Source: Macrostomum hystrix (taxonomy: Eukaryota > Animalia > Platyhelminthes). Taken from it: a DNA stretch of 64,000 nt. Positions 1 through 38,372 of the stretch are shown here, piece after piece; the stretch's first letter is position 1, and each line of letters begins with the position of its first letter. The translations under genes were made by a program, and so were the position numbers. The notes under the pieces are model-generated. The model was not told the DNA's origin, did no database searches, and saw only the letters and a list, made by a program, of their open reading frames with translations. The stretch spans positions 682,001-746,000 of the forward strand of contig CATNEN010000033.1 of NCBI GenBank assembly GCA_950097015.1, read 5' to 3'.

Positions 1-313
1 CTCAACGTCATCGTCGTGACAGTTGGATTTTTCCGCATCGTTTAGAGTTGGCCCTGATGATGATGTTGATGTAGGCATGGCGAGACAATGGGGGCAGTAT
101 TTAAAATGTTGAACTTGTTTTATTTACTTCATTAATTGTCCAAAGTTTCAACTGCATTGATTACATATTCCCAATCACATAAGATTATCAGCAAGCTTGT
201 TACCATAGACTAGCAATAGGGTTTTTAGTTGGTTACTTTACTAAGGTAAGTGGCGTAACTTATTTACACATTTTAGATTCTTAATTATTGTTTCAAATAA
301 AAAAAACTACAAC

Positions 314-772
314 ATGTCATCACTGGGTGGGCGGCACAATGGCGGAGATCGAGATCGAGATATCGACAGAGAGGATCACAACTCTGGCAACGACAAACCG
401 ATCTCGTGCCCTACCGTCAGTAGCAGCACAGATGTCGTGATTGGCACTGAGCGACGTCGACGAAGGCACAGCTCGGATAGTAGTTCAGACTCGGATTTTG
501 CTATTCTGCTTTCACGTCAACGTGTTCAGTACGTATTGCATCGTCCAGGTGTCGTGCGCATTTACAATCAGAGATTTGGAATTGTGAACGCCAATCCGAC
601 ACGTGATTTAGCCGGCCAATTGCAACTGCCGCAGCATGCGCAAGTGACCGATATACAGTCACCAATTATAAGCAGCAGCAGCAGCAACAGTAACAATGGC
701 GGCACTGGCACTGAAAGAGAGCGCGGCGATGCCAATCGTGCTGCAAATAACCCAGATTTGAATGACATGTAG
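314..772 (+). CDS. 152-aa orphan protein of element A (RRRRR basic patch, Ser/Asp-rich)
   Basis: ATG-to-stop ORF; intact 150-aa inverted paralogue at 17514-17966 with frame-preserving indels. Confidence 0.55.
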   Translation: MSSLGGRHNGGDRDRDIDREDHNSGNDKPISCPTVSSSTDVVIGTERRRRRHSSDSSSDSDFAILLSRQRVQYVLHRPGVVRIYNQRFGIVNANPTRDLAGQLQLPQHAQVTDIQSPIISSSSSNSNNGGTGTERERGDANRAANNPDLNDM

Positions 773-1285
773 CAATTGTTTTGTTAAGCACTGTTGCCAT
801 TGCTTATAATGAAATTAATTAACTGATTAATATAATTAGAAGTTTCATGTATTTGATTCATACATCAGAGTATTTAAAATCGACAGTTCATGATGCCTGC
901 AAATGTTTTAAAGTACTTTTATATACACTAGCTCTCGTTCACCTTCACGTGGTATATTCAAAGCATAAGAGTTTGCCGTCACTATTGACAATATATTGTC
1001 GCGTTTACCATTAATCATAATCAGACGACTGATGAGATCAGTCAGTAATAAAATATTAATACGCGAACACAGATGTGTGCAGGTAGTCAACCGGTAATTA
1101 TTAATACGGTTTTTATTAAATTTCACCAATACATATAGAGTATAAATATATATAGAATTTCATTGGTTGAACAAATAATCGTGCCATTCTACAATTAGTC
1201 TGATTTGCAAAGTCGCGAGAGCAAAAATAAACGTGTAAACTATAATACATAAAATTCTGCATATAAATTCTGTATTTTACAGCAT

Positions 1286-1666
1286 TCATTGTTCGATGTA
1301 CCAATAGCGAACTCCATGTATGATGAGCTGAAGTTCAGCTTGGGCTTCCTCTAAAAGCTCTAGCACTTCGATGATGTCTTGTGCTTCATCGTCTCTTACA
1401 CCAGTCACGGACAAGACAGCCTGATAGTCTTCTGCTGACCGGTGCTTTTGCAGCCATTGTTGAGTGCGCCGTAATAATAAACATAGCTCATTAGCGTTGT
1501 ACTCTGCATTTGGAACACCGCGTTGCAAACTAGGTAGCTGCTCGAAGCACCCTCGATGCGCTATGAACCGGCCAATGCAATCTATGCGACAGCTGAGAAA
1601 GAGTTGAAATACGCGCGGCTGAAGATACATTTGTACTAACTGCATCTGATCGGCAATTAACGACAT
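1286..1666 (-). CDS. 126-aa orphan protein, member of a new 126/139-aa family
   Basis: ORF conserved at 16620-17000 with substitutions but no stops; aligns by eye to the 139-aa ORFs at 6376 and 33062. Confidence 0.7.
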   Translation of the reverse strand: MSLIADQMQLVQMYLQPRVFQLFLSCRIDCIGRFIAHRGCFEQLPSLQRGVPNAEYNANELCLLLRRTQQWLQKHRSAEDYQAVLSVTGVRDDEAQDIIEVLELLEEAQAELQLIIHGVRYWYIEQ

Positions 1667-1954
1667 GTTCAGTCAGTTAGTAAATCAAGTAAAGCAAAAA
1701 ATAGTTTTGTTAAAAAAAATTCTAAACTTTAATCGTTTAATAAGAAGCGATATACTAATATTAATATTAATGCGATAAGAAGCCCCCATAGAGTATAATT
1801 TATCGAACACAGGTGAGTCAGTCCAGAGACAAATCAAATGAATACAGGCCAGTCTGGGTATTAAGAACAAGAAATCTTTCTCGGCCAAGAAATCAGCCCA
1901 CAACCAACGCCATACGGACAGAAGCTACAGGATAGCGAGCGACACAGCACGGAC

Positions 1955-2335
1955 ATGAGCAACAATAGCAACAAATTTCCCTCCTTCACCGCGGCGTTCC
2001 GGGAACACGTACTGGCCTCCGCTGCGGCCGAATTGGAAAGCGCATTGCGAGCAGCGATGGATGCAGCGACAGCAGTGGCGGCAGCGGAGGCCTGGACGCC
2101 GGGACGTCGCGGGAAGGAGGCCGAGATGGCTGCCGCTATGCGGCGGGTCCGGGCGGCCATGGTCCGCATGGCCCGGGCCCGCCGCATAGCGGCAGGGCTG
2201 GATCCTTATGTGAGTAGTAGATTTCGATTCCTTTCATTTGAATATTTATGAACACATATGCATGGTAACATCTGAGCTAACAAACTAAATGAAACCTAAA
2301 ACCCATCTTTCATCCCGCAGCCGGGTGTGCTATAA
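1955..2335 (+). CDS. Two-exon 89-aa Ala/Arg-rich orphan protein (exons 1955-2209, 2321-2335)
   Basis: Donor TAT|GTGAGT at 2210 and acceptor CCCGCAG|CCG at 2320 give the C-terminus ...LDPY-PGVL*. The same splice sites and PGVL* end are kept in the inverted copy. Confidence 0.55.
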
Positions 2336-2468
2336 TCAGTCCGACTATCTGGTGTGCTATAATCAGTCCGACTATCTGCCCAATCAGCCGCTGACTATCT
2401 GCCCAATCAGCCGCTGACTATCTGCCCAATCAGTCCCTGACTATCTGCCCAATCAGTCCCTGACAATC
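2324..2468. repeat. 27-bp duplication followed by a 23-bp minisatellite (CTGACTATCTGCCCAATCAGCCG, ~4 copies, each with CCAAT)
   Basis: Direct reading; absent from the inverted copy near 15990. Confidence 0.8.
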
Positions 2469-4056
2469 TTGCATTAATTCTGTTATTGTTTGTAAATAAA
2501 ATAAGCTTAAAATTGTTATTAAAATAGTTTCATAGTTCTCAAAATACATAACTTCTTATCTTGGTTATTTATTTTATCATTAAAATAATATGAACTGATT
2601 GTTGGTTATGTGGTGTACATTGGCGATGAGACTTACTACAATAACGACGTAATCGTAATCGATCAGTCTGGTATATAATTTCAAGTAAAGTTTATACAAG
2701 TTTCTCATGTAAGAAAATATTAATAAAAACGGATTCGTTTAAAAAAGTAAAGTACAAACAACGAATAAATTATTATACGCTTACGTCTTGCTAGATATGC
2801 CAAGATGCACTATTAAAACGTGCAGACTATAGGTATGTAGTGCATTAAATTGTGCGTATTTTACCAAAGACATATCTGCTTGGTACAGCTCGATTTTTTC
2901 GCGATTTTTTTTCTTCGTATCCACATTTTTTCTTTCGAAAATACAGTCAGACGTTTTTGGCCATAGACAAAAAAACGGCTGCATATAATTCATATTGTAT
3001 GCAGTATTTTTGCAAAAGATCTTTCAGTAGCGTGGCTATATCTATGGTATTTTCGCGAATATAGCCAGACATTTCATCTATAATTAGTATTTGCGCACTG
3101 CCAATTTTTTTTTCGACAAAGTAAGAAGGCTCTTATGGAAGACAGCATAGTCACACCGGACTGCTACGGTATTGTAGTGTATATAGTGACTCGGTGTGAC
3201 GGTTCGATGGTTCACATACTGCGACATGTCACATACTGGTTAATATCAATTTGCAATTTAACGTTGTACATCGCATAGCTGCTCGTGCCAATGTTAACTT
3301 GACGTTGTACGTCTGGTTAAATTCGCGCATTTTGCGCAACGCAAAATACAGCAGTACTTTGCATAGACGTACAATGTCGAGCTTAACATTGCCTATGCAA
3401 GTCTCAACCTCATGAGTGTTTCCTGGTATGTCCTCATTCTCCCACTGTCTTTCGACTATCTTTTGTATTTTTAAATGTTTCATACAGTTTTTGTATGCCA
3501 ATTTTATAAAAACGACTGCGACCAAGTGACTGTCCTTTCAAGCGCAGCTACAGTACATGTCAAATTAGCATTAATAAATAAATAATAAATATAAATAATT
3601 TAGTGTTTGTTATTTGTATAATCATTAATAGTACACAACTTCTTATCTTGTTTATTCTATCATTAAAATAATATGAACTGAACTGACTGGCGGTTATGCG
3701 GTGTACATTGGCGTTGAGACTTATTACAAGACCGACGTAATCGTAATCGATCAGTCTGAGATATTATGTTTGTATTTATACTGCGCAAAACCTGAGAATA
3801 ATGAAGTAGACTTAAAACTAAAATTTATGTAGTAGAAATAGACAGTAGTGGAATCAAATCGCATAAAGGTATATATTTTTTAGTTTATTCTTATATCAAC
3901 GTATATTAAATCAATCGATTAAATCAAGTACAGTCTGAATTTATTATAAGTGAGTCAGTCGATTATTCAGCAAGCCAGCCAGCCAGCCAATCAGCCAGTA
4001 GACAGACAAAGCAGCCCAATCTGAGTTGCACGCAGAGCCAATTGAATTGAATGAAA

Positions 4057-5565
4057 TCAATTGCCGCACAGACATTGTCGCGTCTTGATCAATCGGCCGT
4101 GTCTTGACACTGTCGTAGTCAATATATTGTGTGTGCATATACAATACGAGCGTCTAGATGCACGCAAAGCATCAGTCGCAGGTATAGTCGATTGCGATGA
4201 CTGCACATCACTTATTGACATTGCGACATCGTCGTCAAGGTCGGCGGTCAGAACCAATTCTGCTGCGGCATCGGCATCTCCTTGCGGCACTGTCACATCA
4301 GATAACTGTTCATCCGAATCGTTGTTGACATCAGCAATGATGATCTCCATTGCGACATCAAACATGTCATCGATGTGACTTGCTTCGGAATGGGCAGCGA
4401 AATCCGATCCAGCAGCAGCAGCAACACAATCCGTATTGGTAGACAGAAATTGCATAGCGGCAGGTTGCATCAAGTCGAGCAGAATCTGCGCCATTTCAAT
4501 GTCATCACCGTGACCGGATGATGTACCAATACACACTGACTGCGTGCTGACATTGGCTTCGATTGAAACATCGGTCACACCGTTTTGTGCACTGACACCA
4601 ACTGTCGCTGTTGTTACTCTTGGCGCACAGACAGGAATAAAAACAGGTAGCGGCACCGGAACGAAATACGGCACCTCGACAGTTGGAATCGGCAACATAG
4701 GCATCGCTGGTGATCCGATTGGCTCAATTTGCAACATTGGCATTGATGGCGATGGTACTGGCGAGTGATCCGATTGGATTGTTTCTGCTGCTGCTTCAAT
4801 CGCATTGTGATTAAGCGGAGTAGATGTACAAATTGGATGCCGGACTGATCCAATTGACACGCTGTCCGCTTGGCTCACATGTTCAGCAGGCTCGTCAGTA
4901 CTTGTTGCATAGATGATGCCTGATTCAGCTGCGCTATCTTCTATGATGATAGTTTCTGCTGGCTGCTCTGCTGCTGACTGCTCTGCTGCTGACTGCTCTG
5001 CTGATGGCTGCTCTGCTGCTGGCTGCTCTGCTGCTGGCTGCTCTGCTACGGGCTGCTCTGCTACTGGCTGCTCTGCTGCTGGCTGCTCTGCTGCTGGCAG
5101 TCGACGGGCAATGTAGCGCTCGTGCATATAGTCGACAATCTCGCCGACCACAGCTGGTAGTGGATCCAGTTGTTCAAGCTGGACCACTTCGCCCATTGCC
5201 GCTGCTCCCGCCACTGCCACTGGCTGAGCTGGTTGGCCACCGACGCGACGCTGCGGATTCCGCTTACATCTATATAGATGATGCAACATGTTGGACGTTA
5301 TTTTGTTGCAATGCGGACACGCTAGCACACGTCCACCGGCAGCGACATCCACACCAGCCCGCTGTAGTTGCAGCATCTTCCAGACGGCACTTCCACGCTC
5401 CTTAACCGACGCGAATAGCGATGGCCTTTGACCAACAGGTAGGACTGTCCAGTCAAATTCGGCATGGACAGCTTTATGCGCCTCTATAAAATGTCTTCGC
5501 ATCATATTGGCGCGGATTTGCTGGCCGCAGAAATGGCAGAAGCGGAGTCCGTTGTTGTCTTCCAT
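4057..5565 (-). CDS. 502-aa protein: bipartite zinc-finger N-terminus (CxxC..HF-x3-H; CPxCxK..H-x3-C), 9 AEQPx pentapeptide repeats, acidic tail
   Basis: Intact ORF. N-terminus is homologous to exon 1 of the ZnF-YR gene (FDW...K.xAVW...CPxC). Partial copies at 13461-14236 and 29216-30272. Confidence 0.75.
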   Translation of the reverse strand: MEDNNGLRFCHFCGQQIRANMMRRHFIEAHKAVHAEFDWTVLPVGQRPSLFASVKERGSAVWKMLQLQRAGVDVAAGGRVLACPHCNKITSNMLHHLYRCKRNPQRRVGGQPAQPVAVAGAAAMGEVVQLEQLDPLPAVVGEIVDYMHERYIARRLPAAEQPAAEQPVAEQPVAEQPAAEQPAAEQPSAEQSAAEQSAAEQPAETIIIEDSAAESGIIYATSTDEPAEHVSQADSVSIGSVRHPICTSTPLNHNAIEAAAETIQSDHSPVPSPSMPMLQIEPIGSPAMPMLPIPTVEVPYFVPVPLPVFIPVCAPRVTTATVGVSAQNGVTDVSIEANVSTQSVCIGTSSGHGDDIEMAQILLDLMQPAAMQFLSTNTDCVAAAAGSDFAAHSEASHIDDMFDVAMEIIIADVNNDSDEQLSDVTVPQGDADAAAELVLTADLDDDVAMSISDVQSSQSTIPATDALRASRRSYCICTHNILTTTVSRHGRLIKTRQCLCGN

Positions 5566-5764
5566 TGCAGCTTAAATATAGTCGTTCGCTGGCTAGCCTG
5601 CTGAATAATCGACAGAGTGGTCGTTGTGGCTGAATTTTAATTATCGATTTGCGTGCGCGCGCGCATATATTTACCTAGCACTGCTCATATCCTGTACAGA
5701 GCAGCAGTCAGACACATAGACATAGACAGGCATCGTCAACTGGGTCTAAGCTATTTCCATATAT

Positions 5765-6070
5765 AGTATTTTCGCGAAAATACTGATATGCTCTATAAAC
5801 AAAGGTAAGGGCAGTATTTTTGCAAAAGTTCTTGAAGTAGTGTGTGTGGCTACATCTTTGGTATTTTCGCGAAAATACTGCTATGCTATTAAACAAAGGT
5901 AGTTGGCGGTATTTTTGCAAAAGTTCTTAAAGTAGTGTGCATGATTACATCTTTGGTATTTTCGCGAAAATACTGCTATGCTATTAAACAAAGGTAGTTG
6001 GCGGTATTTTTGCAAAAGTTCTTAAAGTAGTGTGCATGGCTACATCTTATGATATTATCGCGAATGCAGA
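5765..6070. repeat. 95-bp palindrome-containing array (~3 units)
   Basis: GTATTTTCGCGAAAATAC at 5861 and 5956 (period 95), alternating with TTTTGCAAAA. Confidence 0.9.
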
Positions 6071-6375
6071 TACGCGGCGGTTGAAGACAATAAGAAGACA
6101 ATATTTTTGCGAAAGTACTTTAAGTATTCATGATGACTATATCTAATGGTAATCAATAACCAAATATGACTTGACTTCATTATATTTTATTATTATTCAT
6201 GCCGCGAATACAACTTGCAACAGGTTCACTCATGTATTTTTGCTTGAGCGAATTAATTGGGTTAAATAAATAGCTGGCATTAATTAAACGGCGAACAGGA
6301 AACTACAATTAGCTGTATTAGCTGTATTAAGTCTACCTAAAACTAGTGCTGCTACTGCTGCTGCTGCTGCTGCTG

Positions 6376-6795
6376 TTACTGCTCAATTCGATATCGGCGG
6401 CTCCGGAGCAACTCTCGCAGTCTAGCCCTTTGCTGTACGCCGCGCCAGTAGTCCAGGCCGTGTAGAATGTGCTGCAGCTCCAAACATGTGTCCTCCAGCA
6501 GGCCTAGCAGCTCGGCCAAGTCGAAGGCCTCGTTCTCTGTTAGGCAGGTCACCTCCAGGATGGTCTCGTAGCCCGCAGCTGTCTTGTGTTGTAGCAGCCA
6601 GTCCAGGAGGCTCTTCATCAGGGTGTGCAGCTGGGTGACGTTCAGCTCAGCAGTCGGGCAGTGGCGCTGCAGGCAGGTTAGCTGCTCCAATCGTCCTCGG
6701 TAAGTCAGGAACGGGGCCAGACAGGCGATGTCGCATCTGGCCAGGAGTGCCACGGTGGCCGGCGAGCCGAACAGCGCCACAGGATGCGTATTCAT
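6376..6795 (-). CDS. 139-aa orphan protein (126/139-aa family)
   Basis: GC-rich ORF in AT-rich context; nearly identical intact copy at 33062-33481; homologous to 1286-1666. Confidence 0.7.
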   Translation of the reverse strand: MNTHPVALFGSPATVALLARCDIACLAPFLTYRGRLEQLTCLQRHCPTAELNVTQLHTLMKSLLDWLLQHKTAAGYETILEVTCLTENEAFDLAELLGLLEDTCLELQHILHGLDYWRGVQQRARLRELLRSRRYRIEQ

Positions 6796-6894
6796 CGTGA
6801 GTTCTACACAACCAACAATGTCGTGAGTGCAACAGCAGCGCGTCTAACACTAGCAGAAGTAGAATTAGAATAGGAAGCAGAGTTCTAAATGGAA

Positions 6895-7745
6895 AGTAAA
6901 TACAGTATTTTCGCGAAGGTAAGGGCAGTATTTTTGCAAAAGTAGCGTGACTACATCTTATGGTATTTTCGCAAATGCAGATACGTATTCTCAGACAAAG
7001 TGACTTTTTACCATAGACAAATTTAGTGTATTTCTGTAAATTGCCAAAACTCACGAATGAGTTTTTTCGCGAAAAGACAATATGTACTATATTGAATACT
7101 TGTAAATGAAAAATAGTGTCTGTTTTTGCGAAAATACTGCTATGCTATTAAACAAAGGTAGTTGGCGGTATTTTTGCAAAAGTTCTTAAAGTAGTGTGCA
7201 TGGCTACATATTATGGTATTTTCGCGAAAATACTGCTATCCTATTAAACGCAGGTAGTAAAGGTAGTTTGCGGTATTTTTGCAAAAGTTATTAAAGTAGT
7301 GTGCATGGCTACATCTTAAGGTATTTTCGCGAAAATACTGTTATGCTATTAAACACAGGTAGTTGGCGGTATTTTTGCAAAAGTTATTAATTAAGTAGGT
7401 TATATGCGTGGCTATATCTTAAGGTATTTTCGCGAAAATACTGCTATGCTATTAAACAAAGGTAGTTGGCGGTATTTTTGCAAAAGTTCTTAAAGTAGTG
7501 TGCATGGCTACATATTATGGTATTTTCGCGAAAATACTGCTATCCTATTAAACGCAGGTAGTAAAGGTAGTTTGCGGTATTTTTGCAAAAGTTATTAAAG
7601 TAGTGTGCATGGCTACATCTTAAGGTATTTTCGCGAAAATACTGTTATGCTATTAAACACAGGTAGTTGGCGGTATTTTTGCAAAAGTTCTTAAAGTAGT
7701 GTGCATGGCTACATATTATGGTATTTTCGCGAATGTAGATACGTA
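6895..7745. repeat. 95-bp palindrome-containing array (~7-8 units, some degenerate)
   Basis: Repeated GGTATTTTCGCGAAAATACTG...GGTATTTTTGCAAAAGT units. Confidence 0.9.
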
Positions 7746-8136
7746 TTCTCAGACAAAGTGACTTGTACTTTTTTACCATCGACAAATTTAGTATATTTCT
7801 CTGCTAATTGTCAATAATCACGAATGATTTTTTCGTGTATCTTCGGCTTTTAAGAAAACGAGAATAGTTTAATCTCAGTTTAATCAGATGATAATCAAAT
7901 GATTTCATTTGTCAATTTATTTAATTACTAACGAAATAATCACAGTGTTGACAATCATTAGCATCTTAACAATATATAAGAGAGCAACAAACAGAACATA
8001 TGAGATTCTCGGTTGTAAAGGGACGGGTATTAGTGGGGGTATCACAATTGACACAATTGATAATTGATAATAGTTTGGCAAATCAGACAATCAGCACATA
8101 TAAAGTCAGGTGACACGACTGGGACAATATGAGCAT

Positions 8137-11100
8137 TCAGATGTCCAGTCTAGTTCTCGAACTGATCAGGCGCCCAGATCGCGTCCTGTATTCCGTTCGA
8201 CGAACCACGAGTAGCTCAGAATCCGAGCTGGTCTCATTGTCATTGCTGACGTGCTGTTGTTCACCATCATCACCTTCTTCGTCGATATCGTCGTGAACGT
8301 TGCCTTGTCCAGCCGATGCTCCAAACATCGGCGGTTGACTAAGACTGCGTCGTCTAGACGATGTAGACGAAATAGGCGATGGTGTTGCTGAATCGATGGC
8401 CGGCTTTGTCGACTCGGTGTTGTCCGTTGTTGAACATCTAGGACTAACCGTAGCGGGTCGCATTGTCGACATTCGAGGTCGCTTCTTGTCAGTGGCCTTG
8501 CAAATGGACGACCGTCGAGTGCGTCGCTTGCGTGTGCGTTGACTATGTGGCATCACAATGTCATCAGCAGGTAGAGGAGATGCAGCCGATGAATTGGTTG
8601 CGTCCAGATCAACGCTACAGGCGGCAGAGCGACGACGCTTCGTGTCGTTTTCGGCTGTTGGATGTCGTTGATGTCGACGATCAAGTGGCCGATTGTGACA
8701 GAATGTCTCGAAGCATCCTCTGACGTCGTCGGCGACCATCAGATTGGCCTGCTGTTTGGCCAGGCGTCCATACGCATTCACGACACAGTTGCGCGATGTG
8801 TCGTACAGAGGCACCAGCTGGTCTAGCTTGTCGGGATGCGCGTGCACATAGGCCGACAGTACATTTCGACGACCATCGCCCATGCGATAGGGCCGATCGA
8901 TGACCAACTCGGCGCCCTGCTTGACAAGCGTGCTGAAACTTGTCGAGTCACGCTGCTTGCCACGATGCGTAGGAAACAGCAGACATTTGCCTGGCCTGAC
9001 ATGGATGTTGCACTCGGCGAAGTATGGCAATAGAAAGTTGTCTATCCATTGCAGTAGACATTCGCCGACTTTGCGTGGCGCAGTCCAGCTTGCACCTTTA
9101 CCACGACCGCCCTTTTTGTGTGCCACTTCGGTAGGCGGCAGGACTGTGACAATGGTGGAGGACGTTGATACGCCGCTATTGAGTGCAGCATCCAAATAGC
9201 AACGCCGGATCGCGACCCAAGGACGTAGTCGATTGGCATGGACAATTGCTGCACAGAAGAAGGCCAGTTCACGCGTGATCGGCATAATAAATGTATTCCA
9301 TTTGCCGACGACGTTGGCCATTCGACGTGCACATTGTCCAATGCGACCCCAGTAGCCCTTCACGGGTAGATGAGACCACGAATGTTTGGCGACCATATCA
9401 ATCAGGCAGTCTAGCCGGTTGTGAATGATGCGCCATTCGTCAGCGGTCAGGAACTTATCCGTGTAGGACAGCTGGCGTTCGTCATCGCGCAGGTGATAGA
9501 TATTCTCTTGCCGCTGACGAATCAATCGAATGCAAGCCTGTACATGTTAAAGGGTTATGAAAGAGAAAGTACATACAGTAGCTTCTACAATTGTTCGTGA
9601 TATATCAACTAACATAGTATACAATATGCGACACAACAACACTGCTCACCATGATTGATTCGATGCGGCTAGTCAACAGACCAGATACTGCAGTCTGATG
9701 ATAGAGAATACCATCTTTGCGCGGGTCAGGACAGGCAGGCAATTCTGACGCGGCCTTGACAATGTCGGCATGCACGTTGGCAAACAATCCATCTGGTGGC
9801 GAGGTCAATTGGAACGCGTTCATAACACTAGGAGCACCGAAGTCGTTGTTGGCTGCTAGAAACTTCTTCGCGCCGCTCAATATGTTATGAAGCTCGTTCA
9901 TTCGCTGTCCAACAGTCGATGGTTTCCAGATATGGCGCTTCACCATCTCGTCCAGATCGAATTGGATGCGCGCTGGATTTATGAACCACATCTCGACTGT
10001 GACATTGATTGCGTGTAGGAGACGACTAGTTGTAGCATGATAGTTCCGCTGGATTGCTTTCCTACGGCTAACATGCGATGCGTTCTCTTCTACACAGCAA
10101 TGACCCTTGAACCAGATGTCGCCGACATTGTCTAGTTGCTTGTACATGTGTTCAGATGCAACGTGGTAGTCTGGGCCGTCGAAAACAACAAGCCGAGACG
10201 TCTTGTGCCTCCGTTGCAATACAAGCTCCTCTTCACTGACAGAATCATCAGTATTTTCCACGTCAGATTTAGAGGTCTGAGTCTCTGCTTGTCGATGACT
10301 GACAGCATTGGTGACTCCGACCGGAACATAGTCTGACGTATACTGGAGAATTGCTTCTGTCAGATTGACCAGATTCTGCAAGCTAGTACACACGCGCGGA
10401 TGCTCAGCGTTGTGGGCTTTCTGCAGAATCTCGTTGAGGCCGGCCGCATTCAGACGCAGTCCATTGATAAATTCTGTTTGACAGGAAAGTTATAAATATT
10501 TGTTGATTATTTTTTGTCTTTATGTGTAAATTTAAAAATTTAAAGGCATGTACAACAATATTTTAGACCACTTACTGATCGCTGCCACATTGTCGTTGGC
10601 ATTATTGAATTCTGGCATCGTACTCGTTTCGTTTTGCAGTCGCTCGATGTCGTGACTGACAATATCGGCCGTGTAAGATGGTCCGGCACGATCGAAACTA
10701 GCCAACACCGGTGCTACTAAAGTAGACGGTATGACAGACGATGCACTGTTGGTAATGCGTACAGCAGTGGACTGTCCAGCAGAAGACGATCCCGCAGACG
10801 ACGCACACACGACAATAGGCAGCTCAATTTTTGCACCCGCGTCAATCGAATCAGACGAAGAATCGTCGCTCTCACCTGACGAAAGGGTTGCATTTGCTGC
10901 CTCTGTAATTGCCGGTTTACTTTTACAAGGTCGTGCGATATGCTTGCTGAGTTGCCGCACACATTTACCACAATATGGACAATGCTTGTATAGTACATCA
11001 ATTCCCTTCCGACGGAGTATGAGGACCTTCCATACAGCATTTGCCTTGGCATCAGCCGACGCATTCGCTGCGGCTCGCATATCTGCAGGTATGTCGCTCC

Positions 11101-27871: not shown

Positions 27872-29189
27872 ACATTGAATTTCGTAGAATTTAGCGCGAA
27901 TTTGAAATTTTAGTTTCTTATATAAAATCTATAAATAACTGAGTAGCACTATATGCAGCTGTTAATTGCCGTTATTAAATCGTACTACTATATTATATGT
28001 ATAGCTTTTTGAGTCTATCCAAATTGTATTTTAATGCACACATCATTACTACATGTATTTTAATTGCTTGTTATTGCAGATGCCGCTAGTTGATTTTCAT
28101 CTTAAATTAGTTAATTGCCGATTTTCATATGCATACGTACCGTCTACTACATGTAGTTCTTGATTGAATGCTTTTTCTTGATTTATGTCCTTTATTCACA
28201 TATTAATGCATGCAGTCAGCTTTTCATACCATATACTAGTATACTTACTCAAATTATTATAGCTCAATTATTATAAGTTAAATAACATAATTAGCGCCCA
28301 AATAAGCAAATAACAACTGCCTGTGTGTAAAATTATTTTTAGACTACTATTAATAAAAGGAATGCGATAAACTCAAGACATAGACAAAGGTTAGGCACAT
28401 AGAAACTAAATTTTATCAGGAAGACTGTATTGCTCATCTTGAGCACACAAGTCAAAGAAAGCTAGCTCGCGCACTGATTGATTTCTCTATGCCAATCGAT
28501 TAAGAGACTCGATCGTTCCCAAGCTACACTTTGATTTTCAATCCTAACTCTATTAATCAACCAAATCAACTCCTTCGTGATCTACTGTTTCGTTTCGACT
28601 GCCCCCTACACTGTTCCGATTGCTCCGCTCCAGCTGCGACCCGAACGACGACGACTGCATTTAAAGTGATTTTTATCTGCGCTCCACAAGGTAGGCAATC
28701 ATTGTTAATTATTCTAGCTGCCCATCTATCTAACTTGTTGGAGAGCAGCAACAGCAACAACAACAACAACAACTATTTGTTGGCGGTGAGGGATTAAAAA
28801 GTTTAATGGAGCCGGTACAGAAAAAGTAGAACGGCAATAAAATGGGGACAATTGAAATTGTCGACAGCCTGCGACATATGCTAAATGAAAATATTGACTA
28901 TGAAATAATAGAACTCAAAATAAAAGCAATCAGATAAGAGCGAGAAGCGATCCTGAGAACAAGTAATAAATGCCATCTCCATCTCTTAGCACATCTAGAC
29001 TGACGAGCAACAAAAACACTAGAATAAGGAAAACACTGCGCGCTATTTTATTCAATTAAACTAATCCCATCAAATGCTTTATAAATTGCTATAGTCCGCG
29101 CACATTTCTGCTACCCCGTTTTCTGCAACTGTGTGCCACGTATAGATTATATATGGTGCTGTTAAACAGCCGAACCCAAAAGCCATTCC

Positions 29190-30272
29190 TTATTTAGCCC
29201 AATAAGGACTAATATTTTGTGCACTGACACCAACTGTCACTGTTGTTACTCTTGGCGCACAGACAGGAATAAAAACAGGTAGCGGCACCGGAACGAAATA
29301 CGGCACCTCGACAGTTGGAATCGGCAACATAGGCATCGCTGGTGATCCGATTGGCTCAATTTGCAACATTGGCATTGATGGCGATGGTACTGGCGAGTGA
29401 TCCGATTGGATTGTTTCTGCTGCTGCTTCAATCGCATTGTGATTAAGCGGAGTAGATGTACAAATTGGATGCCGGACTGATCCAATTGACACGCTGTCCG
29501 CTTGGCTCACATGTTCAGCAGGCTCGTCATAAATTGTTGCATAGATGATGCCTGATTCATCTGCGCTATCTTCTATGATGATAGTTTCTGCTGGCTGCTC
29601 TGCTGCTGGCTGCTCTGCTGATGGCTGCTCTGCTACTGGCTGCTCTGCTACTGGCTGCTCTACTACTGGCTGCTCTGCTACTGGCTGCTCTGCTACTGGC
29701 TGCTCTGCTACTGGCTGCTCTGCTACTGGCTGCTCTGCTACAGGCTGCTCTGCTACTGGCTGCTCTGCTACTGGCTGCTCTGCTACTGGCTGCTCTGCTG
29801 CTGGCAGTCGACGGGCAATGTAGCGTTCGTGCATGTAGTCGACAATCTCGCCGACCACAGCTGGTAGTGGATCCAGTTGTTCAAGCTGGACCACTTCGCC
29901 CATTGCCGCTGCTCCCGCCACTGCCACTGGCTGAGCTGGTTGGCCACCGACGCGACGCTGCGGATTCCGCTTACATCTATATTGATGATGCAACATGTTA
30001 GATGTTATTTTGTTGCAATGCAGACACGCTAGCACACGTCCACCGGCAGCGACATCTACACCAGCCCGCTGTAGTTGCAGCATCTTCCAGACGGCACTTC
30101 CACGCTCCTTAACAAACGCGAATAGCGATGGCCTTTGACCAACAGGTAGGACTGTCCAGTCAAACTCGGCATGGACAGCTTTATGCGCCTCTATAAAATG
30201 TCTTCGCATCATATTGGTGCTGATTTGCTGGCCGCAGAAATGGCAGAAGCGGAGTCCGTTATTGTTTTCCAT
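29190..30272 (-). pseudogene. 3'-truncated copy of the ZnF/AEQP gene (14 pentapeptide repeats)
   Basis: Matches 4580-5565; the last few codons come from unrelated flank. Confidence 0.8.
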
Positions 30273-30374
30273 TGCAGCTTGTATAGTAGATCGCTGGCTA
30301 GCTTGCTGAATAATCGACAGAGTGATCGTTCTGGCTGACTTTTAATTATCGATTTGCGTGCGCGCGCGCATATA

Positions 30375-31980
30375 TACCTTTTTACGTTCTATTTGATAAA
30401 AACTGCAACCAATTTGGCCACGGCTCAGCCTGACGCAGCCGCAGCAATTTTCCATAGACAGCCGCCGCTAGCAGCAACCAATTTGGTACGAGTAAAAACT
30501 GCGAGCTATTTTGCCAGCTTGAAGATATCATCTTATCATTCTGATCATCACTCTGATGGCGAATCGTGGGCCGTACCAAAAGATAAGTCAGCTGGATCGA
30601 GAGCGAATCGTGAGAGCGTACAGGAATGGCGACGACTGGAGAGAGCTTGGCAGAATGATGGGGATGAAGAAACCGACAGTGAGGAACATCGTGATCACGT
30701 ATGAACGAACTGGTAGAGTTGGCACTCTGCCAAAAGGAGGAGTGAAGAGGATGGCGCTGACGGAGGCTATGGTGGACACCATTGTTCAATTCGTTGAAGG
30801 TCAACCTACTGCGACGCTGCAACAAATGAGAGAGCACCTGCTACACCAACACAATGACGTTGCCAACGTGAGTCTGACCACTATCAGTCGTGCTCTGGAT
30901 GGTCGCCTCATCACCCTGAAGTTGCTGCGCCAGGTACCTGTGAACTGGAACATGCCTGTTACAAAGGAGGCGCGAAGGATGCACGTCGAATGGATGCTGG
31001 ACGAGGGAAGCCAGGTGAACACAATTTTCATGGACGAGTTTGGGGTGAATATCTGGACGGCGAGGACTCAAGGCCGCTCAGCGAAGGGGCTCCCAGCTGT
31101 GACTGTCGTCAGTGGACAGCGTGGGCAGAATCTCACCATCTGCCTGGCCATCTCGCAACTCGGCCTCGTTCACAGCACTCTCGTTGAAGGAGGCTTTAAG
31201 AACGAGCACTTCGTGGAATTCCTCTCTGAGATCGATTTTCTGATGGAAGAGTAGTTTGTGCTACTGTCCGATGGGGCACGCGCTCACCTAGGTGTCCCTG
31301 GGATGTCTGAAGGTCATGCTCACCGATTCCTGCCTCCATACTCGCCGTTCATCAACCCGGCGGAGTACGCAGGCTCAGCGCTGAAGGCCAAGCTGAAAAG
31401 GCAACTGCAATCACCTGCCATTCAGCGCGAGGTGGCAGATACTGGACTGGCTGCTGCAGCAGGTGCGACACTGCATCAGCACAGGATGCGCATTCTTAAG
31501 AGAGAAGTGCAGCAAGCACTGAACTGCATCACGCCTCTTAAGTGCCTGCGCTGGATCAACCACTCCCAGACGTACTTCAATCGGTGCTTGAATGCTGAGG
31601 ACATATTGTTCTGACTTCTGACTGAGGACATATTGTTATCATTCTTAATGTTATGAATTCGTGTTCTGACTTCTGACTGAGGACATACTGTTATCATTCT
31701 TAATGTTATGAATTCGTGTTCTGACTTCTGACTGAGGACATGCTGTTATCATTCTTTATCGTTATTGTTATGCTATAGCTCCCTATTTCGCTACTGCTGT
31801 TGACAGGGCAGGTCAAATACAGCAGTGTGCTGCTATCTTCAAGCTGGCAAAATAGCTCGCAGTTTTTACCAAATTGGTTGCTGCTAGCGGCGGCTGTCTA
31901 TGGAAAATTGATGCGGCTGCGTCAGGCTGAGCCGTGGCCAAATTGGTTGCAATTTTTATCAAATAGAACGTAAAAAGGTA
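30375..31980 (+). mobile_element. Tc1/IS630-superfamily DNA transposon, ~165-bp TIRs, TA TSD
   Basis: Ends TACCTTTTTACG...CGTAAAAAGGTA. Empty site GCGCATATATTTACC is seen at ~5661 in copy 1. Confidence 0.92.
30556..31614 (+). pseudogene. IS630/Tc1-like transposase with one in-frame stop (TAG 31252)
   Basis: HTH N-terminus, IFMDE, LLSDGARAH, FLPPYSPFINPAE; the two ORFs are in the same frame. Confidence 0.88.
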
Positions 31981-32079
31981 TATTTACCAAGCACTGCTCA
32001 TATCCTGTACAGAGCAGCAGTCAGACACATAGACATAGACAGACATCGTCAACTGGGTCTAAGCTATTTCCAAATATCA

Positions 32080-32765
32080 GTATTTTCGCGAAAATACTGA
32101 TATGCTCTAAACAAAGGTAAGAGCAGTATTTTTGCAAAAGTTCTTGAAGGTGTGTGCATTACTACATCTTATGGCATTTTCGCGAAAATACTGATATGCT
32201 ATTAAACAAAGGTAGTTAGCGGTATTTTTGCAAAAGTTCTTGAAGGTGTGTGCATGGCTACATCTTATGGCATTTTCGCAAAAATACTGATATGCTATTA
32301 AACAAAGGTAGTTGGCGGTATTTTTGCAAAAATTTTTGAAGTTGTGTGCATGGCTACATCTTATGGTATTTTCGCGAAAATACTGATATGCTATTAAACA
32401 AAGGTAGTTAGCGGTATTTTTGCAAAAGTTCTTGAAGGTGTGTGCATGGCTACATCTTATGGCATTTTCGCAAAAATACTGATATGCTATTAAACAAAGG
32501 TAGTTGGCGGTATTTTTGCAAAAATTTTTGAAGTTGTGTGCATGGCTACATCTTATGGTATTTTCGCGAAAATACTGATATGCTATTAAACAAAGGTAGT
32601 TAGCGGTATTTTTGCAAAAGTTCTTGAAGTAGTGTGCATGGCTACATCTTATGGTATTTTCGCGAAAATACTGATATGCTATTAAACAAAGGTAGTTGGC
32701 GGTATTTTTGCGAAAATTCTTAATGTAGTGTGCATGGCTACATCTTATGGTATTATCGCGAATGC
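32080..32765. repeat. 95-bp palindrome-containing array (~7 units)
   Basis: Expanded equivalent of 5765-6070. Confidence 0.9.
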
Positions 32766-33061
32766 AGATACGCGGCGGTTGAAGACAATAAGAAGACAAT
32801 ATTTTTGCGAAAGTACTTTAAGTATTCATGATGACTATATCTAATGGTAATCAATAACCAAATATGACTTGACTTCATTATATTTTATTATTATTCACGC
32901 CGCGAATACAATTTGCAACTGGTTCACTCATGTATATTTGCTTGAGCGAATTAATTGGGTTAAATAAATAGCTGGCATTAATTAAACGACGAACAGGAAA
33001 CTACAATTAGCTGTATTAAGTCTAACTAAAACTAGTGCTGCTACTGCTGCTGCTGCTGCTG

Positions 33062-33481
33062 CTACTGCTCAATTCGATATCGGCGGCTCCGGAGCAACTC
33101 TCGCAGTCTAGCCCTTTGCTGTACGCCGCGCCAGTAGTCCAGGCCGTGTAGAATGTGCTGCAGCTCCAAACATGTGTCCTCCAGCAGGCCTAGCAGCTCG
33201 GCCAAGTCGAAGGCCTCGTTCTCTGTTAGGCAGGTCAGCTCCAGGATGGTCTCGTAGCCCGCAGCTGTCTTGTGTTGTAGCAGCCAGTCCAGGAGGCTCT
33301 TCATCAGGGTGTGCAGCTGGGTGACGTTCAGCTCAGCAGTCGGGCAGTGGCGCTGCAGGCAGGTTAGCTGCTCCAATCGTCCTCGGTACGCCAGGAACGG
33401 GGCCAGACAGGCGATGTCGCATCTGGCCAGGAGTGCCACGGTGGCCGGCGAGCCGAACAGCGCCACAGGATGCGCATTCAT
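33062..33481 (-). CDS. 139-aa orphan protein (second copy)
   Basis: Intact; few substitutions relative to 6376-6795. Confidence 0.7.
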   Translation of the reverse strand: MNAHPVALFGSPATVALLARCDIACLAPFLAYRGRLEQLTCLQRHCPTAELNVTQLHTLMKSLLDWLLQHKTAAGYETILELTCLTENEAFDLAELLGLLEDTCLELQHILHGLDYWRGVQQRARLRELLRSRRYRIEQ

Positions 33482-33589
33482 CGTGAGTTCTACGCAACCA
33501 ACAATGTCGTGAGTGCAACAGCAGCGCGTCTAACACTAGCAGAAGTAGAATTAGAATAAGAAGCAGAGTTCTAAATGGAAAGTAAATAC

Positions 33590-34740
33590 AGTATTTTCGC
33601 GAAGGTAAGGGCAGTATTTTTGCAAAAGTAGCGTGACTACATCTTATGGTATTTTCGCAAATGCAGATACGTATTCTCAGACAAAGTGACTTTTTACCAT
33701 AGACAAATTTAGTGCATTTCTGTAAATTGCCAAAACTCACGAATGAGTTTTTTTTCGCGAAAAGACAATATGTACTATATTGAATACTTGTAAATGAAAA
33801 ATAGTGTCTGTTTTTGCGAAAATACTGCTATGCTATTAAACAAAGGTAGTTGGCAGTATTTTTGCAAAAGTTCTTAAAGTAGTTTAAAGTACTGTACATG
33901 ACTACATCTTATGGTATTTTCGCGAAAATACTGCTATGCTAATAAACAAAGGTAGTTGGCGGTATTTTTGCAAAAGTTCTTAAAGTAGTGTGCATGACTA
34001 CATCTTATGGTATTTTCGCGAAAATACTGCAATGCTATTAAACAAAGGTAGTTGGCGGTATTTTGCAAAAGTTCTTAAAGTAGTGTGCATGACTACATCT
34101 TATGGTATTTTCGCGAAAATACTGCAATGCTATTAAACAAAGGTAGTTGGCGGTATTTTAGCAAAAGTAGTGTGCATGGCTACATCTTATGGTATTTTCG
34201 CGAATGCAGATACGTATTCTCAGACAAATTGACTTGTACTTTTTTACCATCGACAAATTTAGTATATTTCTGCTAATTGCCAAGAGTCATGTATTTTTTT
34301 CGCGAAAAGACTATAACGTTACTATGATGAATATACTTTTGCAAAAATGCAATGTTCTCAAAACGAAGGTAAGAGCAGTATTTTTGCAAAACGTCTTAAA
34401 GTTGTGTGCATGGATACATCTTATGGCATTTTCGCGAAAATACTGATATGCTATTAAACAAAGGTAGTTAGCGGCATTTTTGCAAAAGTTCTTGAAGGTG
34501 TGTGCATGGCTACATCTTATGGCATTTTCGCAAAAATACTGATATGCTTTAAACAAAGGTAGTTAGCGGTATTTTTGCAAAAGTTCTTGAAGTAGTGTGC
34601 ATGGCTACATCTTATGGTATTTTCGCGAATGCAGATACGTATTCTCAGACAAAGTGACTTGTACTTTTTACCATCGACAAATTTAGTATATTTCTGCTAA
34701 TTGTCAATAATCACGAATGATTTTTTTCGTGAAAATACAA
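33590..34740. repeat. 95-bp palindrome-containing arrays with duplicated linker segments
   Basis: Equivalent of 6895-7830, rearranged. Confidence 0.85.
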
Positions 34741-35043
34741 TATATACTGTGTATCTGCGGCTTTTAAGAAAACGAGAATAGTTTAATCTTAGTTTAATCA
34801 GATGATAATCAAATGATTTCATTTGTTAATTAATTTATTTACTAAAGAAAAAATCACAGTGTTGACAATCATTAGCATCTTAATAATATATAAGAGAGCA
34901 ACAAACAGAACATATGAGATTCTCGGTTGTAAAGAGACGGGTATTAGTGGGGGTATCACAATTGACACAATTGATAATAGTTTGGCAAATCAGACAATCT
35001 GCACATATTAAGTCAGGTGACACGACTGGGACAATATGAGCAT

Positions 35044-36616
35044 TCAGATGTCCAGTCTAGTTCTCGAACTGATCAGGCGCCCAGATCGCGTCCTGTATGC
35101 CGTTCGACGAACTATGAGTAGCTCAGAATCCGAGCTGGTCTCATTGTCATTGCTGACGTGCTGTTGTTCATTATCATCACCTTCGTCGTCGATATCGTCG
35201 TGAACGTTGCCTTGTCTTCCTGATGCTCCATGCATCGGCGATTGACTAAGACTGCGTCGTCTAGACGATGCAGACGAAATAGGCGATGGTGTTGCTGAAT
35301 CGATGGCCGGCTTTGTCGACTCGGTGACGTTGTTGTACATCTGGGGCTAATTGTAGCGGGTCGCATTGTCGACATCCGAGGTCGCTTCTTGTCGGTGGAT
35401 GATGACGCCGCTTTGCCAATGGACGACCGTCGAGTGCGTCGCTTGCGTATGCGTTGACAATGTGGCATCACAATGTCATCAGCAGGTAGAGGAGATGCAG
35501 CCGATGAATTGGTTGCGTCCAGATCAACGCTACAGGCAGAGCGACGACGCTTCGTGTCGTTTTCGGCTGTTGGATGTCGTTGATGTCGACGATCAAGTGG
35601 CCGATTGTGACAGAATGTCTCGAAGCATCCTCTGACGTCGTCGGCGACCATCAGATTGGCCTGCTGTTTGGCCAGGCGTCCATACGCATTGACGACACAG
35701 TTGCGCGATGTGTCGTACAGAGGCGCCAGCTGGTCTAGCTTGTCGGGATGCGCGTGCACATATGCCGACAGTACATTTCGACGCCCATCGCCCATGCGAT
35801 AGGGCCGATCGATGACCAACTCGGCGCCCTGCTTGACAAGCGTGCTGAAACTTGTCGAGTCACGCTGTTTGCCACGATGCGTACGAAACAGCAGACATTT
35901 GCCAGGCCTGACCCGGATGTTGCACTCGGCGAAGTATGGCAATAGATAGTTGTCGATCCATTGCAGTAGACATTCGCCGACTTTGCGTGGCGCAATCTAG
36001 CTTGCACCTTTTCCACGACCGCCCTTTTTGTGTGCCACTTCGGTAGGCGGCAGGACGGTGACAATGGTGGAGGACGTTGATACACCACTATTGAGTGCAG
36101 CATCCAAATAGCAACGCCGGATCGCGACCCAAGGACGTAGTCGGTTGGCATGGACAATGGCTGCACAGAAGAATGCCAGTTCACGAGTGATCGGCATAAT
36201 AAATGCATTCCATTTTCCGACAGTGTTGGCCATTCGACGTGCACATTGCCCAATGCGACCCCAGTAGCCCTTCACGGGTAGATGAGACCACGAATGTTTG
36301 GCGACCATATCAATCAGGCAGTCTAGCCGGTTGTGAATGATGCGCCATTCGTCAGCGGTCAGGAACTTATCCGTGTAGGACAGCTGGCGTTCGTCATCGC
36401 GCAGGTGATAAATATTCTCTTGCCGCTGACGAATCAATCGAATGCAAGCCTGTACATTTTAAAGGGTTATTAAAGAGAAATGCATGCAGTAGCTTCTACA
36501 ATTGTTCATGACATATATTAACTAACATGGTATACAACATGAGACACAACAGTACTGCTCACCATGATTGATTCGATGCGGCTAGTCAACAGACCAGATA
36601 CTGCAGTCTGATGATA
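35044..36616 (-). pseudogene. Disrupted copy of the ZnF-YR gene (end of exon 2, intron 2, exon 3)
   Basis: TGG>TAG at 35997 (ASW>AS*), 4-bp deletion frameshift near 35330, and upstream exons deleted at 36616. Confidence 0.85.
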
Positions 36617-38372
36617 TTTTTAGATTTTAAGAAATATATATTTTTAGAAATACACTAGGGAGATCAAAAAAAGGTCATTCAGCCTTTTGCACGCTTTTAC
36701 ACGCATGCCTACTGTTAGTAGTAGGTATAGCACTAGCGCTATATCGAAGATTTGGCCCGGACTTTTTTGCTCGGTTATTTTTAGCCTGACTTTTTTTCAA
36801 CCAGGAACCCGGAATTTTTTTCACATGTTCGGACTTTTCTGCTCGGTTATTTTTAGCCAGACTTTTTTGCACCATGAGCCCGGACATTTTTACCACTTTT
36901 CTCGGTGTGGCGTACTGACCTTGAGCATGGATTTCTCTTTGTACTCGAAATGTACTCGATTTCCCCTTTGAGGTGAAATCCAAGCCACCCGTGTAAAAAA
37001 GTCCCGGCTTTGGAAAAAAAAGAGTCCAATGCATACGCGCTCAAACTGTTATCTTATCTTTGCTGATCGCAAGATTGAAAGCTCAGTCACCGTCTTGAGC
37101 TCAAAGCCAACTGATATAGTGTTATCAAAAACTCAAACACGAAAAAGAAAGACTGAGAGAAGGAAAGCTGGAGGCAAGCATCTATGTGCCTGCGATTTCG
37201 ATGTCCTCGCAGTTCAGAGAGCAAAATCTGCTGCGTGTGCGTACAGCCAACGTAAAATTCACAATTCCGAATTCGAAAACTGAGCCACTTTATATGCCAA
37301 TTTGATTGCCCAATAATGGAAATGTTTTCTGCAGCAACAGCACAATCCTGGCTTTAAGTATGGCCTTGCTTCTGTATAGTTTTCGGCTAGCATGCCGCCA
37401 GTAGTTAGCTGAACAAACAGTCTAGCAGACAAGCGAGATACTGTCAAGCGAGAACATTATCAGTCAGTACATAACAGATTTGGCAGTACATATCGTTGCA
37501 TTCGATTCTGCTCGCGCTTAAATCAGCATTCCGCGTCTACCGATAAAAAGTGTGCTCCAGAGTTTCATTTAACTTCCGCGGCTGTTTGGAGTTTTTTTAC
37601 CAGAATTTCAATTATATATCCATTTATTTTTTCGCATCCTGTGTGGTTGATATAACAAACTGGTAGAACTTAAAATAGAAAAATTTCAGTCAGCATTCCA
37701 TTGGTTTCAGATGGTCTTTTAATGAATTAAAAAATTAATAAAGTAAAATTTGACTGAACAGATGCTCTCTCAGGTCTACAACTCCAACAGATGTACTACG
37801 TGTATTTATACGGGGACTTCCTGTTATTAAAACCTGCACCTGCAGATTGAGTCATCTTTCGATCATCCGATTGAAGATGTCGCCTACTATACTTTCCAGG
37901 CTGATTCTATACGGCGTAATGGTGGCCACATTAAAGAAGGCCACAAGTTTTTTGCGTCTGTATTCGCCATATGCTTTCTGTTGAAGGAAGCCGACTCAAA
38001 CTATCCGAAGGTGGCGTCTTTTGGGTAAATGCGCACGGCAATGCCCTGCTTAGTGCTATTGTACGCAAGGGCTTAATCGAAAAAAACTGGGCCCTAATAT
38101 GCGAACATAGCAGCTTCACATGATCATTTACTTCCTAGCTTATGATCACATTTTCAGAAGTGTCCAGTTACCGCAGGTTCTTACGGACTGCGCCTCTAAT
38201 TCTGTTGCCTTTTTCTTTGCTCCTATCGACAACGAAGAATATGACTTGCTGGAACGTGACTTGCTTGCTAGAGCCAAAGAATCAGACATCTGTTACGATG
38301 TTAAAGACAATTTTTGTCTATATGTTATCTATTTTTAATATAAAAAATTAGTCATTTCATACACAAGATCTA

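Follow-up and report, generated by a model that had tools for sequence, protein, structure and literature searches.

A repeated multi-gene unit with two tyrosine recombinase-like genes in the flatworm Macrostomum hystrix: a candidate circle-forming mobile element

Introduction

What kind of genetic element underlies the block of genes that recurs, in the same order, across positions 1-36688 of a 64,000-nucleotide stretch of the genome of the flatworm Macrostomum hystrix (GenBank assembly GCA_950097015.1, contig CATNEN010000033.1, positions 682,001 to 746,000; hereafter, the window)? Within the literature searched, large tyrosine recombinase (YR) elements are either fungal (the Starships) or full viruses (nimaviruses and the endogenous viral elements of Ectocarpus), and the YR transposons of animals are single-gene Cryptons or retroelements; no such element was found described for flatworms or other animals in the open PMC and bioRxiv literature, a scope that excludes subscription journals, Repbase and Dfam. 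Analysis of the window suggests that the repeated unit is an undescribed, multi-gene YR element working in the manner of Starships or Cryptons, a reading to which a probability of about 0.6 was assigned. The unit is probably mobile and would move as a DNA circle.

Organization of the Repeated Unit

Self-BLAST established that the gene-order blocks recognized in an earlier note on this DNA are real, with identities of 89-96%; 1-2333 pairs with 18278-15998 and 3574-4832 with 14742-13461, both in inverted orientation, and 4583-5670 pairs with 29215-30375 and 5762-9703 with 32458-36616. Between 1-36700 and 36701-64000, zero matches were returned by blastn or tblastx. The window holds two diverged copies of the unit arranged head to tail, A (1-12963) and B (~12964-36688), which differ by 4-11%, ruling out an assembly artefact. 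The earlier note had described three overlapping partial copies of a unit of at least ~15 kb, and both figures required revision. At the breakpoints of an inversion lies a 250-bp inverted duplication of 99.6% identity (13461-13710 = 29464-29215), such as is typical when an inversion splits a single element, and the blocks are better read as two elements than as three. Complementary parts of the zinc finger (ZnF) gene ZnF-502 sit in the inverted block and in 29215-36688, and these two stretches are better read, on their sequence, as a single element B that was split by the inversion. Copy B was disrupted by four events in all: this inversion, the insertions of a Helitron and of a Tc1-like transposon, and a deletion of ~3.2 kb that removed the equivalent of 9704-12912 from its right part.

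Of the public sequencing runs, X1, X2, X4, and X5 were used and X10 (share 0.08) was left out. Contigs of the runs used carry forms of the unit without the insertions; an X1 joint from 21029 to 23397 represents the form lacking the Helitron, and a joint from 30370 to 31979, found in three of the four runs, the form lacking the Tc1-like insertion. A 1125-letter contig of X1 with a depth of 459.9 was placed on 28147-29220 with 55 letters unplaced, an X1 contig of identical depth value (459.9) has a gap at 13352, and positions 13380-13389 share a 10-bp microhomology with 29219-29210. It is likely that 12964-13389 joins 29209 (opposite strand) in other copies, the identity of the contig being taken from one depth value. 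Because the public joints bypass the Helitron and the Tc1-like insertion, and 12964-13389 would lead to 29209, we infer a length of about 22.0 kb for the unit, with A abutting B head to tail. This length includes a second recombinase-like gene, YR-B (24571-27263), that had been overlooked, and brings the content of the unit to two YR-type genes and about six small accessory genes (Table 1).

The Recombinase-Like Proteins YR-A and YR-B

The open 948-amino acid (aa) frame of YR-A, the ZnF-YR gene of the earlier note, is interrupted by two GT-AG introns (10474-10575 and 9538-9649) and encodes a ZnF, a helical middle domain and a YR catalytic domain. Contigs of X4 and X5 skip both introns and one X1 contig spans both; a contig of X2 skips the second intron as placed on copy B. 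The introns are likely spliced. An AlphaFold2 model of the catalytic exon, built on a 13-sequence alignment, reached a mean predicted confidence (pLDDT) of 83.8, and a single-sequence model (pLDDT 34.5) was set aside. A Foldseek search of the PDB with the former returned an integrase as the best match (E 5e-4), together with XerA, XerH, and Cre, and all 35 rows listed belong to the superfamily of YRs, type IB topoisomerases (TopIB) and protelomerases. With VIA-align, XerH ranked first (Z 11.8, rmsd 3.8, 188 residues aligned; next Z 11.5, 11.1, and 10.6) and the top 29 rows comprised members of the same superfamily or derivatives of them, protelomerases scoring Z 4.5-6.3 (TelK, Z 6.3). The BFVD structure search likewise gave integrase matches, those to a nudivirus integrase and VLF-1 being weak (E about 0.01-0.04), and the Atlas match was a Phage_integrase cluster (0.94, with 17% of members). 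The catalytic domain of YR-A is thus predicted, by all three fold searches, to adopt the YR fold that characterizes the superfamily, which agrees with what had been claimed for this gene.

The candidate catalytic residues R585, K623, R705, and Y738 of YR-A are kept, and both His positions are replaced. R223, R224, T247, S248, and Y256 (numbered by the first row of alignment A3) are invariant in 7/7 rows, and the first Arg and the Lys are conserved in the rows that cover them. Between copies A and B, YR-A has a dN/dS ratio of 0.14 (p 9e-7). With this fold and these residues, catalytic activity of YR-A is plausible. No match to YR-A was found in Pfam, PHROG, or NCBIfam, and neither DUF3504 nor DUF3435 was matched at E values up to 10 by YR-A, YR-B, or eight homolog or exon queries. 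The C-termini of YR-A (8140-8200, TRSGRLISSR) and ZnF-502 (4060-4110, SRHGRLIKTR), both on the minus strand, are alike and basic; they recall the motifs by which viral proteins tether to the nucleosome acidic patch, and no paper was found for the TRSGR motif.

YR-B is a 27% identical paralog of YR-A with the same pattern of R, K, R, and Y, and all five metagenome homologs tested favored it over YR-A in score. Since contigs of three of the four runs differ from the window inside codon 358, the in-frame stop at that codon may be private to the window copy, or an assembly error. No skipping of its predicted intron was seen, a contig of X4 running ungapped over 24799-26316. The perfect 38-bp palindrome at 27515-27552 adjoins YR-B.

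Accessory Genes and Purifying Selection

The ORFs (open reading frames) of 152, 126, 502, and 139 aa were found in the order that had been claimed. Two further genes of the earlier note exist in altered form: the best equivalents of its "89-aa" gene are ORFs of 98 aa (1955-2251, plus strand) and 86 aa (16118-16378, minus strand), and its acidic-repeat gene is complete only at 18201-18854. ZnF-502 has its ZnF region in common with YR-A (34% identity, E 5e-10). Pooled over seven gene pairs, the dN/dS ratio of copy A versus copy B is 0.30 (p 7e-13), with five of the seven individually significant; the copies diverged under purifying selection. Values of dS across the genes of the pair form a mosaic, from 0.009 to 0.56.

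No Pfam, PHROG, or NCBIfam match was obtained for the 152-aa ORF. For the 126/139-aa family, 0 of 1096 candidates proved to be homologs, and there was no Atlas match and no PDB match better than E 0.26. When all 107 stop-to-stop frames of at least 75 aa in 1-30400 were compared with Pfam, only the PIF1 helicase of the inserted Helitron exceeded the curated cut-off; reverse transcriptase (RT), RNase H, PolB, capsid, DUF3504, and DUF3435 were not detected, a negative limited by the fact that Pfam misses even the YR genes of the unit. Within these bounds, the hallmarks of DIRS, Crypton (DUF3504), Starship (DUF3435), and Polinton elements went undetected, in line with the earlier note. A 110-aa ORF at 15106-15438 with a Walker-B-like word was rejected as spurious; it overlaps an array motif, is closed in copy A and has no significant match. 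The copies vary from each other in one region (2333-3574 versus 14742-15998), where small inverted repeats occur at 14774-14917 and 15017-15096 and an 84-aa ORF (3229-3483, minus strand) is found only in copy A.

Palindrome Arrays and a Candidate Core Site

The palindrome arrays of the earlier note are present, with a unit of 95-96 bp. The motif TTTTCGCG occurs 62 times against 2.7 expected (0/100 shuffles reaching this count), 61 of the 62 lying within 1-36700, both in the arrays and scattered toward the right end of the unit. It is also abundant in a tandem duplication, described earlier as 565 bp, that exists (540 bp aligned, period 568, 11352-12456) in copy A only. An E2F8 model used 5'-TTTTTCGCGCGAAAA-3' (PMC4686757). 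The resemblance of TTTTCGCG to E2F sites is a lead only, and an element-encoded binder is as likely.

A candidate recombination core site, with a shape like that of loxP, lies at the A|B junction (12943-12964), and its spacer and one arm recur at the junction of copy B with the low-depth flank (36669-36688), the single flank junction within the window. The last 51 bp end identically in A and B despite the ~3.2-kb deletion just inside the end of B. At 7 bp, the arms are shorter than the 11-13-bp inverted repeats, separated by spacers of 6-8 bp, that are described for Crypton and other YR sites (PMC3212892). Many loose ends of contigs and raised depth (X4 147.8 and X1 2894 in the bin) were noted at 12809-12960, which suggests that a subterminal motif of ~90 bp occurs in further contexts or families. 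Just beyond copy B, a hairpin followed by CTAG (36703-36745) is like the 3' end of a Helitron.

Copy Depth and Relatives

In X1, most non-array bins of 1-11000 had a contig depth of about 800-1900, and the non-Helitron bins of 19164-29123, the arm of YR-B, whose genes are single in the window, mostly one of 450-930; in the flank (37092-38400), it was about 107, with contigs of 63.5 and 95.5 showing 0-1 differences. Depth several-fold over that of the flank is weak evidence that the unit is repeated in the genome. The YR-A region is contained in runs labelled organism A and organism B; organism C gave short pieces, mostly of 90-99%.

A profile of YR-A and YR-B found 12 matches among 1.84 billion proteins, three of which (P0004, P0009, and P0012) were dropped as repeat-driven. 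The two best are UniRef models of Macrostomum lignano, and the others kept lie on contigs of 0.6-2.4 kb that derive from metagenomes or runs. The M. lignano cluster has six members; in P0016, the YR domain is 44% identical and the same ZnF and middle domain are present. The 98/86-aa ORF resembles residues 31-69 of this model, upstream of its ZnF-YR, a match reached in 0 and 1 of 2000 shuffles and at E 0.002 by BLASTP for the 86-aa form; BLASTP of the 98-aa form gave nothing significant. This upstream match suggests a sister family in M. lignano with linked genes, namely a small accessory gene and a ZnF-YR. Six of seven M. lignano UniRef homologs in the P0001 cluster bear the label "Ras-GEF domain-containing," apparently a wrong annotation of proteins with the YR fold.

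Other searches were negative. A single-sequence search with the YR-A domain gave 0 homologs among 996 candidates, and that with profile A3 gave two of 5652, both already in the alignment; A3 had no significant match among PDB sequences. No related locus was found in six scans of viral contigs, two scans of metagenome contigs or by tblastn against phages, and exact look-up of window proteins in a protein collection returned 0/9.

Remaining Features of the Window

The PIF1 helicase was considered as a unit gene and rejected, since it belongs to a later Helitron insertion that the X1 joint bypasses. X1 depth over this Helitron (50,000-115,000) points to a very abundant family, and not all copies of the unit carry the Tc1/IS630-like element. 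Beyond the unit, the window is ordinary animal DNA, with genes for an oxysterol-binding protein, an FHA-PHD protein and CCSAP and a mariner fragment. A 2.1-kb inverted repeat of 99% identity (43867-46078 and 51576-53731) flanks exons of the oxysterol-binding protein gene, and a 29-bp tandem array of ~33 copies (63043-63997) reaches the window end.

Table 1. Positions of the features of the repeated unit and of its insertions, in window coordinates.
Feature	Position	Strand	Remarks
Copy A	1-12963	+	Right 13 kb of unit, left part beyond window; by self-BLAST
Copy B, putative left end	12964-13389	+	45-bp repeats at 12980-13138
Copy B, inverted internal segment	13461-29209	-	250-bp breakpoint duplication
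Copy B, right part	29215-36688	+	5' part of ZnF-502, arrays, 139-aa ORF, 3' half of YR-A, last 51 bp of unit
152-aa ORF	314-772	+	Copy B 17514-17966 (-), 150 aa; dN/dS 0.22, p 0.005
126-aa ORF	1286-1666	-	Copy B 16620-17000 (+); 40% paralog of 139-aa ORF
98-aa Ala/Arg-rich ORF	1955-2251	+	Copy B 16118-16378 (-), 86 aa; dN/dS 0.31
ZnF-502	4057-5565	-	C2H2/C2HC-like N-terminus, 15-bp repeat, acidic tail; dN/dS 0.12-0.26
Palindrome array 1	5766-6064		95-96-bp unit, TTTTCGCGAAAA and TTTTTGCAAAA cores; copy B right part 32080-32762
139-aa ORF	6376-6795	-	Copy B right part 33062-33481 (-); covered by contigs in 3/4 runs
Palindrome array 2	7123-7733		Copy B right part 33811-34629
YR-A	8137-11197	-	Exons 11197-10576, 10473-9650, 9537-8137; 948 aa, open; GT-AG introns
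Tandem duplication	11352-12456		540 bp aligned, 98.3%, period 568; only copy A; TTTTCGCG-rich
Candidate core site	12943-12964		A|B junction; 7-bp inverted arms, 8-bp asymmetric spacer
Acidic ORF, 217 aa	18201-18854	+	31-aa repeat; copy A retains first 78 bases only (78-1, -)
CTG-rich repeats	19668-20747		No clear gene
31-bp array	20840-23394		Interrupted by Helitron fragment
Helitron fragment	21081-23355		TC...CTAG between A and T; PIF1 ORF 21736-22692; inside 31-bp array
YR-B	24571-27263	+	Predicted intron 26083-26183; 863 codons; in-frame stop at codon 358
Two hairpin-type palindromes	27515-27871		38 bp perfect (27515-27552); ~117 bp imperfect (27755-27871)
Tc1/IS630-like DDE transposon	30372-31983	+	159-bp terminal inverted repeats, TA site, split DDE ORF; not part of unit
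Candidate core site, second copy	36669-36688		6-bp arms; junction with low-depth flank

A Proposed Mechanism and the Evidence Weighed

As proposed, the unit would leave the chromosome as a circle and insert again through recombination that YR-A catalyzes at a short core site, the 7+8+7-bp site at 12943-12964 being the presumed place of cutting by YR-A, either alone or with YR-B. On this view, the A|B junction would represent an end-to-start join of the circle type, left when one copy integrated at the end of the other. The arrays may be bound at TTTTCGCGAAAA by the ZnF common to YR-A and ZnF-502, or by host factors of the E2F type, and such binding could serve to time expression or to assemble a recombination complex. 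Given that no encoded polymerase was detected, gain of copies would rely on replication by the host. The proposal of the earlier note, a cargo-carrying YR element or a reduced endogenous virus, is borne out as far as the predicted YR fold, the multi-gene repeated unit, purifying selection and, weakly, the raised depth are concerned; neither a virion gene nor a relative in IMG/VR was found.

A number of observations weigh against mobility of this kind. The evidence on copies comes from a single locus, two adjacent copies in one 64-kb window, and the several-fold depth is contig depth, which differs from copy number and would look alike for an adjoining long tandem array. In-frame stops break copy B of YR-A (35997-35999) and, in the window, YR-B (codon 358), and the runs in which introns are skipped are not on record as RNA. 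Both catalytic His are replaced, and relative to the R-K-H-R-H/W-Y active site, the R, K, R, and Y were assigned by motif order and fold range. With VIA-align, TopIB enzymes (Z 9.6-10.4) score nearly as well as recombinases, and hhalign of YR-A with lambda Int, Cre, and HP1 gave a probability of 0.1%. Neither the 139-aa pair (four changes, dN/dS 1.0) nor the 126-aa pair (p 0.17) shows significant selection. The core site was chosen post hoc, 1.2% of window positions lying within 15 bp of such a site, and no loose ends fell at 12963 or 36688 among the 22 of 220 and 24 of 272 that were listed. Finally, the DNA past 36688 partly repeats the first ~20 bp after 12963, and because the flank echoes that sequence, the right end at 36688 is a candidate only; what follows it may be the scar of a truncation and not a target site.

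Comparison with Known Systems

The unit shares with Starships a large size, multiple genes and a YR with introns close to one end; for Starships, a circular intermediate has been shown (bioRxiv 10.64898/2026.09.21.753150), and one is proposed here. Unlike Starships, the unit resides in an animal, has two YRs, and gave no DUF3435 match (YR genes and 107 frames), so that no DUF3435 captain stands as its first gene; YR-A points from the right end into the unit, its start lying about 1.8 kb inside that end. In place of variable cargo of known function there is a fixed set of small orphan genes, and there are internal palindrome arrays. Cryptons (CryptonA, F, I, and S) are described in PMC3212892 as YR DNA transposons with introns, no long terminal inverted repeats (TIRs) and a proposed circular excision, features that the unit would seem to share. 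Terminal direct repeats of 4-6 bp are a further Crypton trait; in the unit, the spacer and one arm of the candidate core site are common to both junctions. They have a single YR with an R-H-R-Y tetrad, at most one extra ORF (a peptidase in some) and a length of a few kb, whereas the unit has two YRs and ~six other ORFs, or about eight genes, in ~22 kb, with the His replaced and no DUF3504 match. On the features tested, the unit is neither a Starship nor a Crypton.

YR-mediated integration of circles in animals is also known from DIRS, Ngaro, and VIPER, which are defined by RT, RNase H, and inverted terminal repeats (ITRs) or split direct repeats; the unit gave no RT or RNase H match in the 107 frames, has neither split direct repeats nor ITRs, and keeps spliceosomal introns in its genomic copy. 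Of the traits of Polinton/Maverick elements, adintoviruses and Polinton-like viruses, the unit showed no long TIR and no Pfam or PHROG match to pPolB, helicase, packaging ATPase, or jelly-roll capsids, a negative limited by the failure of Pfam to recognize even its YRs. Paired YRs also occur in bacteria, as XerC/XerD and in integrative elements. The unit resembles XerC/XerD-type systems in its two divergent YRs and in having XerH, XerA, and Cre as best fold matches, and departs from them in its eukaryotic introns, zinc fingers and identities of 10-13%; any cooperation of YR-A and YR-B would be by analogy.

Alternative Explanations

The unit could instead be a reduced or defective endogenous DNA virus, a satellite or a plasmid-like circle, in which the arrays served as origins or enhancers, the ZnF-YR effected integration, and the genes for replication and packaging are too diverged to be recognized or were supplied by a helper. 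This is rather unlikely given that, the inserted Helitron PIF1 aside, none of the 107/107 frames of 1-30400 encodes a recognizable polymerase, helicase, packaging ATPase, or capsid, the other ORFs being small or of low complexity, and that there were 0 relatives in six viral contig scans, no phage tblastn match, and that, of the 12 profile matches, the 11 whose source was looked up included no named viral protein. The end-to-start join and the palindrome arrays are nonetheless in keeping with it, as are the weak matches to nudivirus integrase and VLF-1 (E about 0.01-0.04), the location of the distant homologs on short metagenome contigs, and the blindness of Pfam even to the YRs. Moreover, according to PMC10871703, endogenous nimaviruses integrate in invertebrates, and the YRs of these crustacean viruses combine C2H2 and SAM-like domains with an incomplete set of key residues (five of the seven) and are encoded, in two viruses, by multiple exons, a likeness that compares the YRs by description only. 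The core genes for virions and replication that nimaviruses, as large viruses, possess went undetected in the unit; more generally, the DNA polymerase, PIFs, capsid, and >100 kb of Nimaviridae and nudiviruses contrast with a unit of ~22 kb, and no telomeric or 28S flank was seen (0 Rfam matches in 1-38000, the tRNA scan being likewise empty).

A host tandem gene cluster, in which domesticated, catalytically dead YR-fold DNA-binding proteins and their neighbors were amplified segmentally, would account for copies that are adjacent and head to tail, for spliceosomal introns and host-like CpG content, for the loss of both His, and for purifying selection, which suits a host function; domesticated YRs are known in animals as DUF3504 genes (PMC3212892). 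Those DUF3504 proteins, by the same source, lost the tyrosine and the second arginine, both of which are invariant here (7/7 rows); no accessory ORF falls in a recognizable host family, a 44%-identical sister family ties the same small gene to its ZnF-YR, and the dS mosaic of 0.009-0.56 is not expected from one simple duplication. This explanation is distinctly unlikely. Very improbable is a third, that the YR-fold proteins are a hairpin-telomere resolvase or a TopIB serving an episome that is linear or has hairpin ends, and act on the palindromes at 27515-27871: recombinases came first in all three fold searches, protelomerases scored lower (Z 4.5-6.3), and no strand-switch joint was seen at the palindromes among the 15 of 42 joints listed. 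In its favor are the VIA-align scores of TopIB (Z 9.6-10.4) and TelK (Z 6.3), the perfect 38-bp palindrome adjoining YR-B, and the loss of both His, which recalls non-canonical active sites.

Implications

The preferred reading, an undescribed YR element moving as a circle, may be extended, tentatively and with less than even confidence, to a superfamily of animal "Starship-like" units of ~22 kb that form circles. Its members would have paired zinc-finger YRs of a new His-less clade, conserved orphan accessory genes, and E2F-like palindrome arrays through which activity is tied to the division of stem or germ cells, with diverged sister families in Macrostomum and, more remotely, relatives in environmental metagenomes. 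Should the unit instead be a viral remnant, it would point to an unknown lineage of DNA viruses of flatworms. If it is a multi-gene, two-recombinase unit of animals, it would extend the cargo-type mobility of YRs to metazoans, reveal a YR clade that is invisible to Pfam, PHROGs, and NCBIfam, and provide a site-specific recombinase adapted to animals, together with a candidate site of 22 bp.

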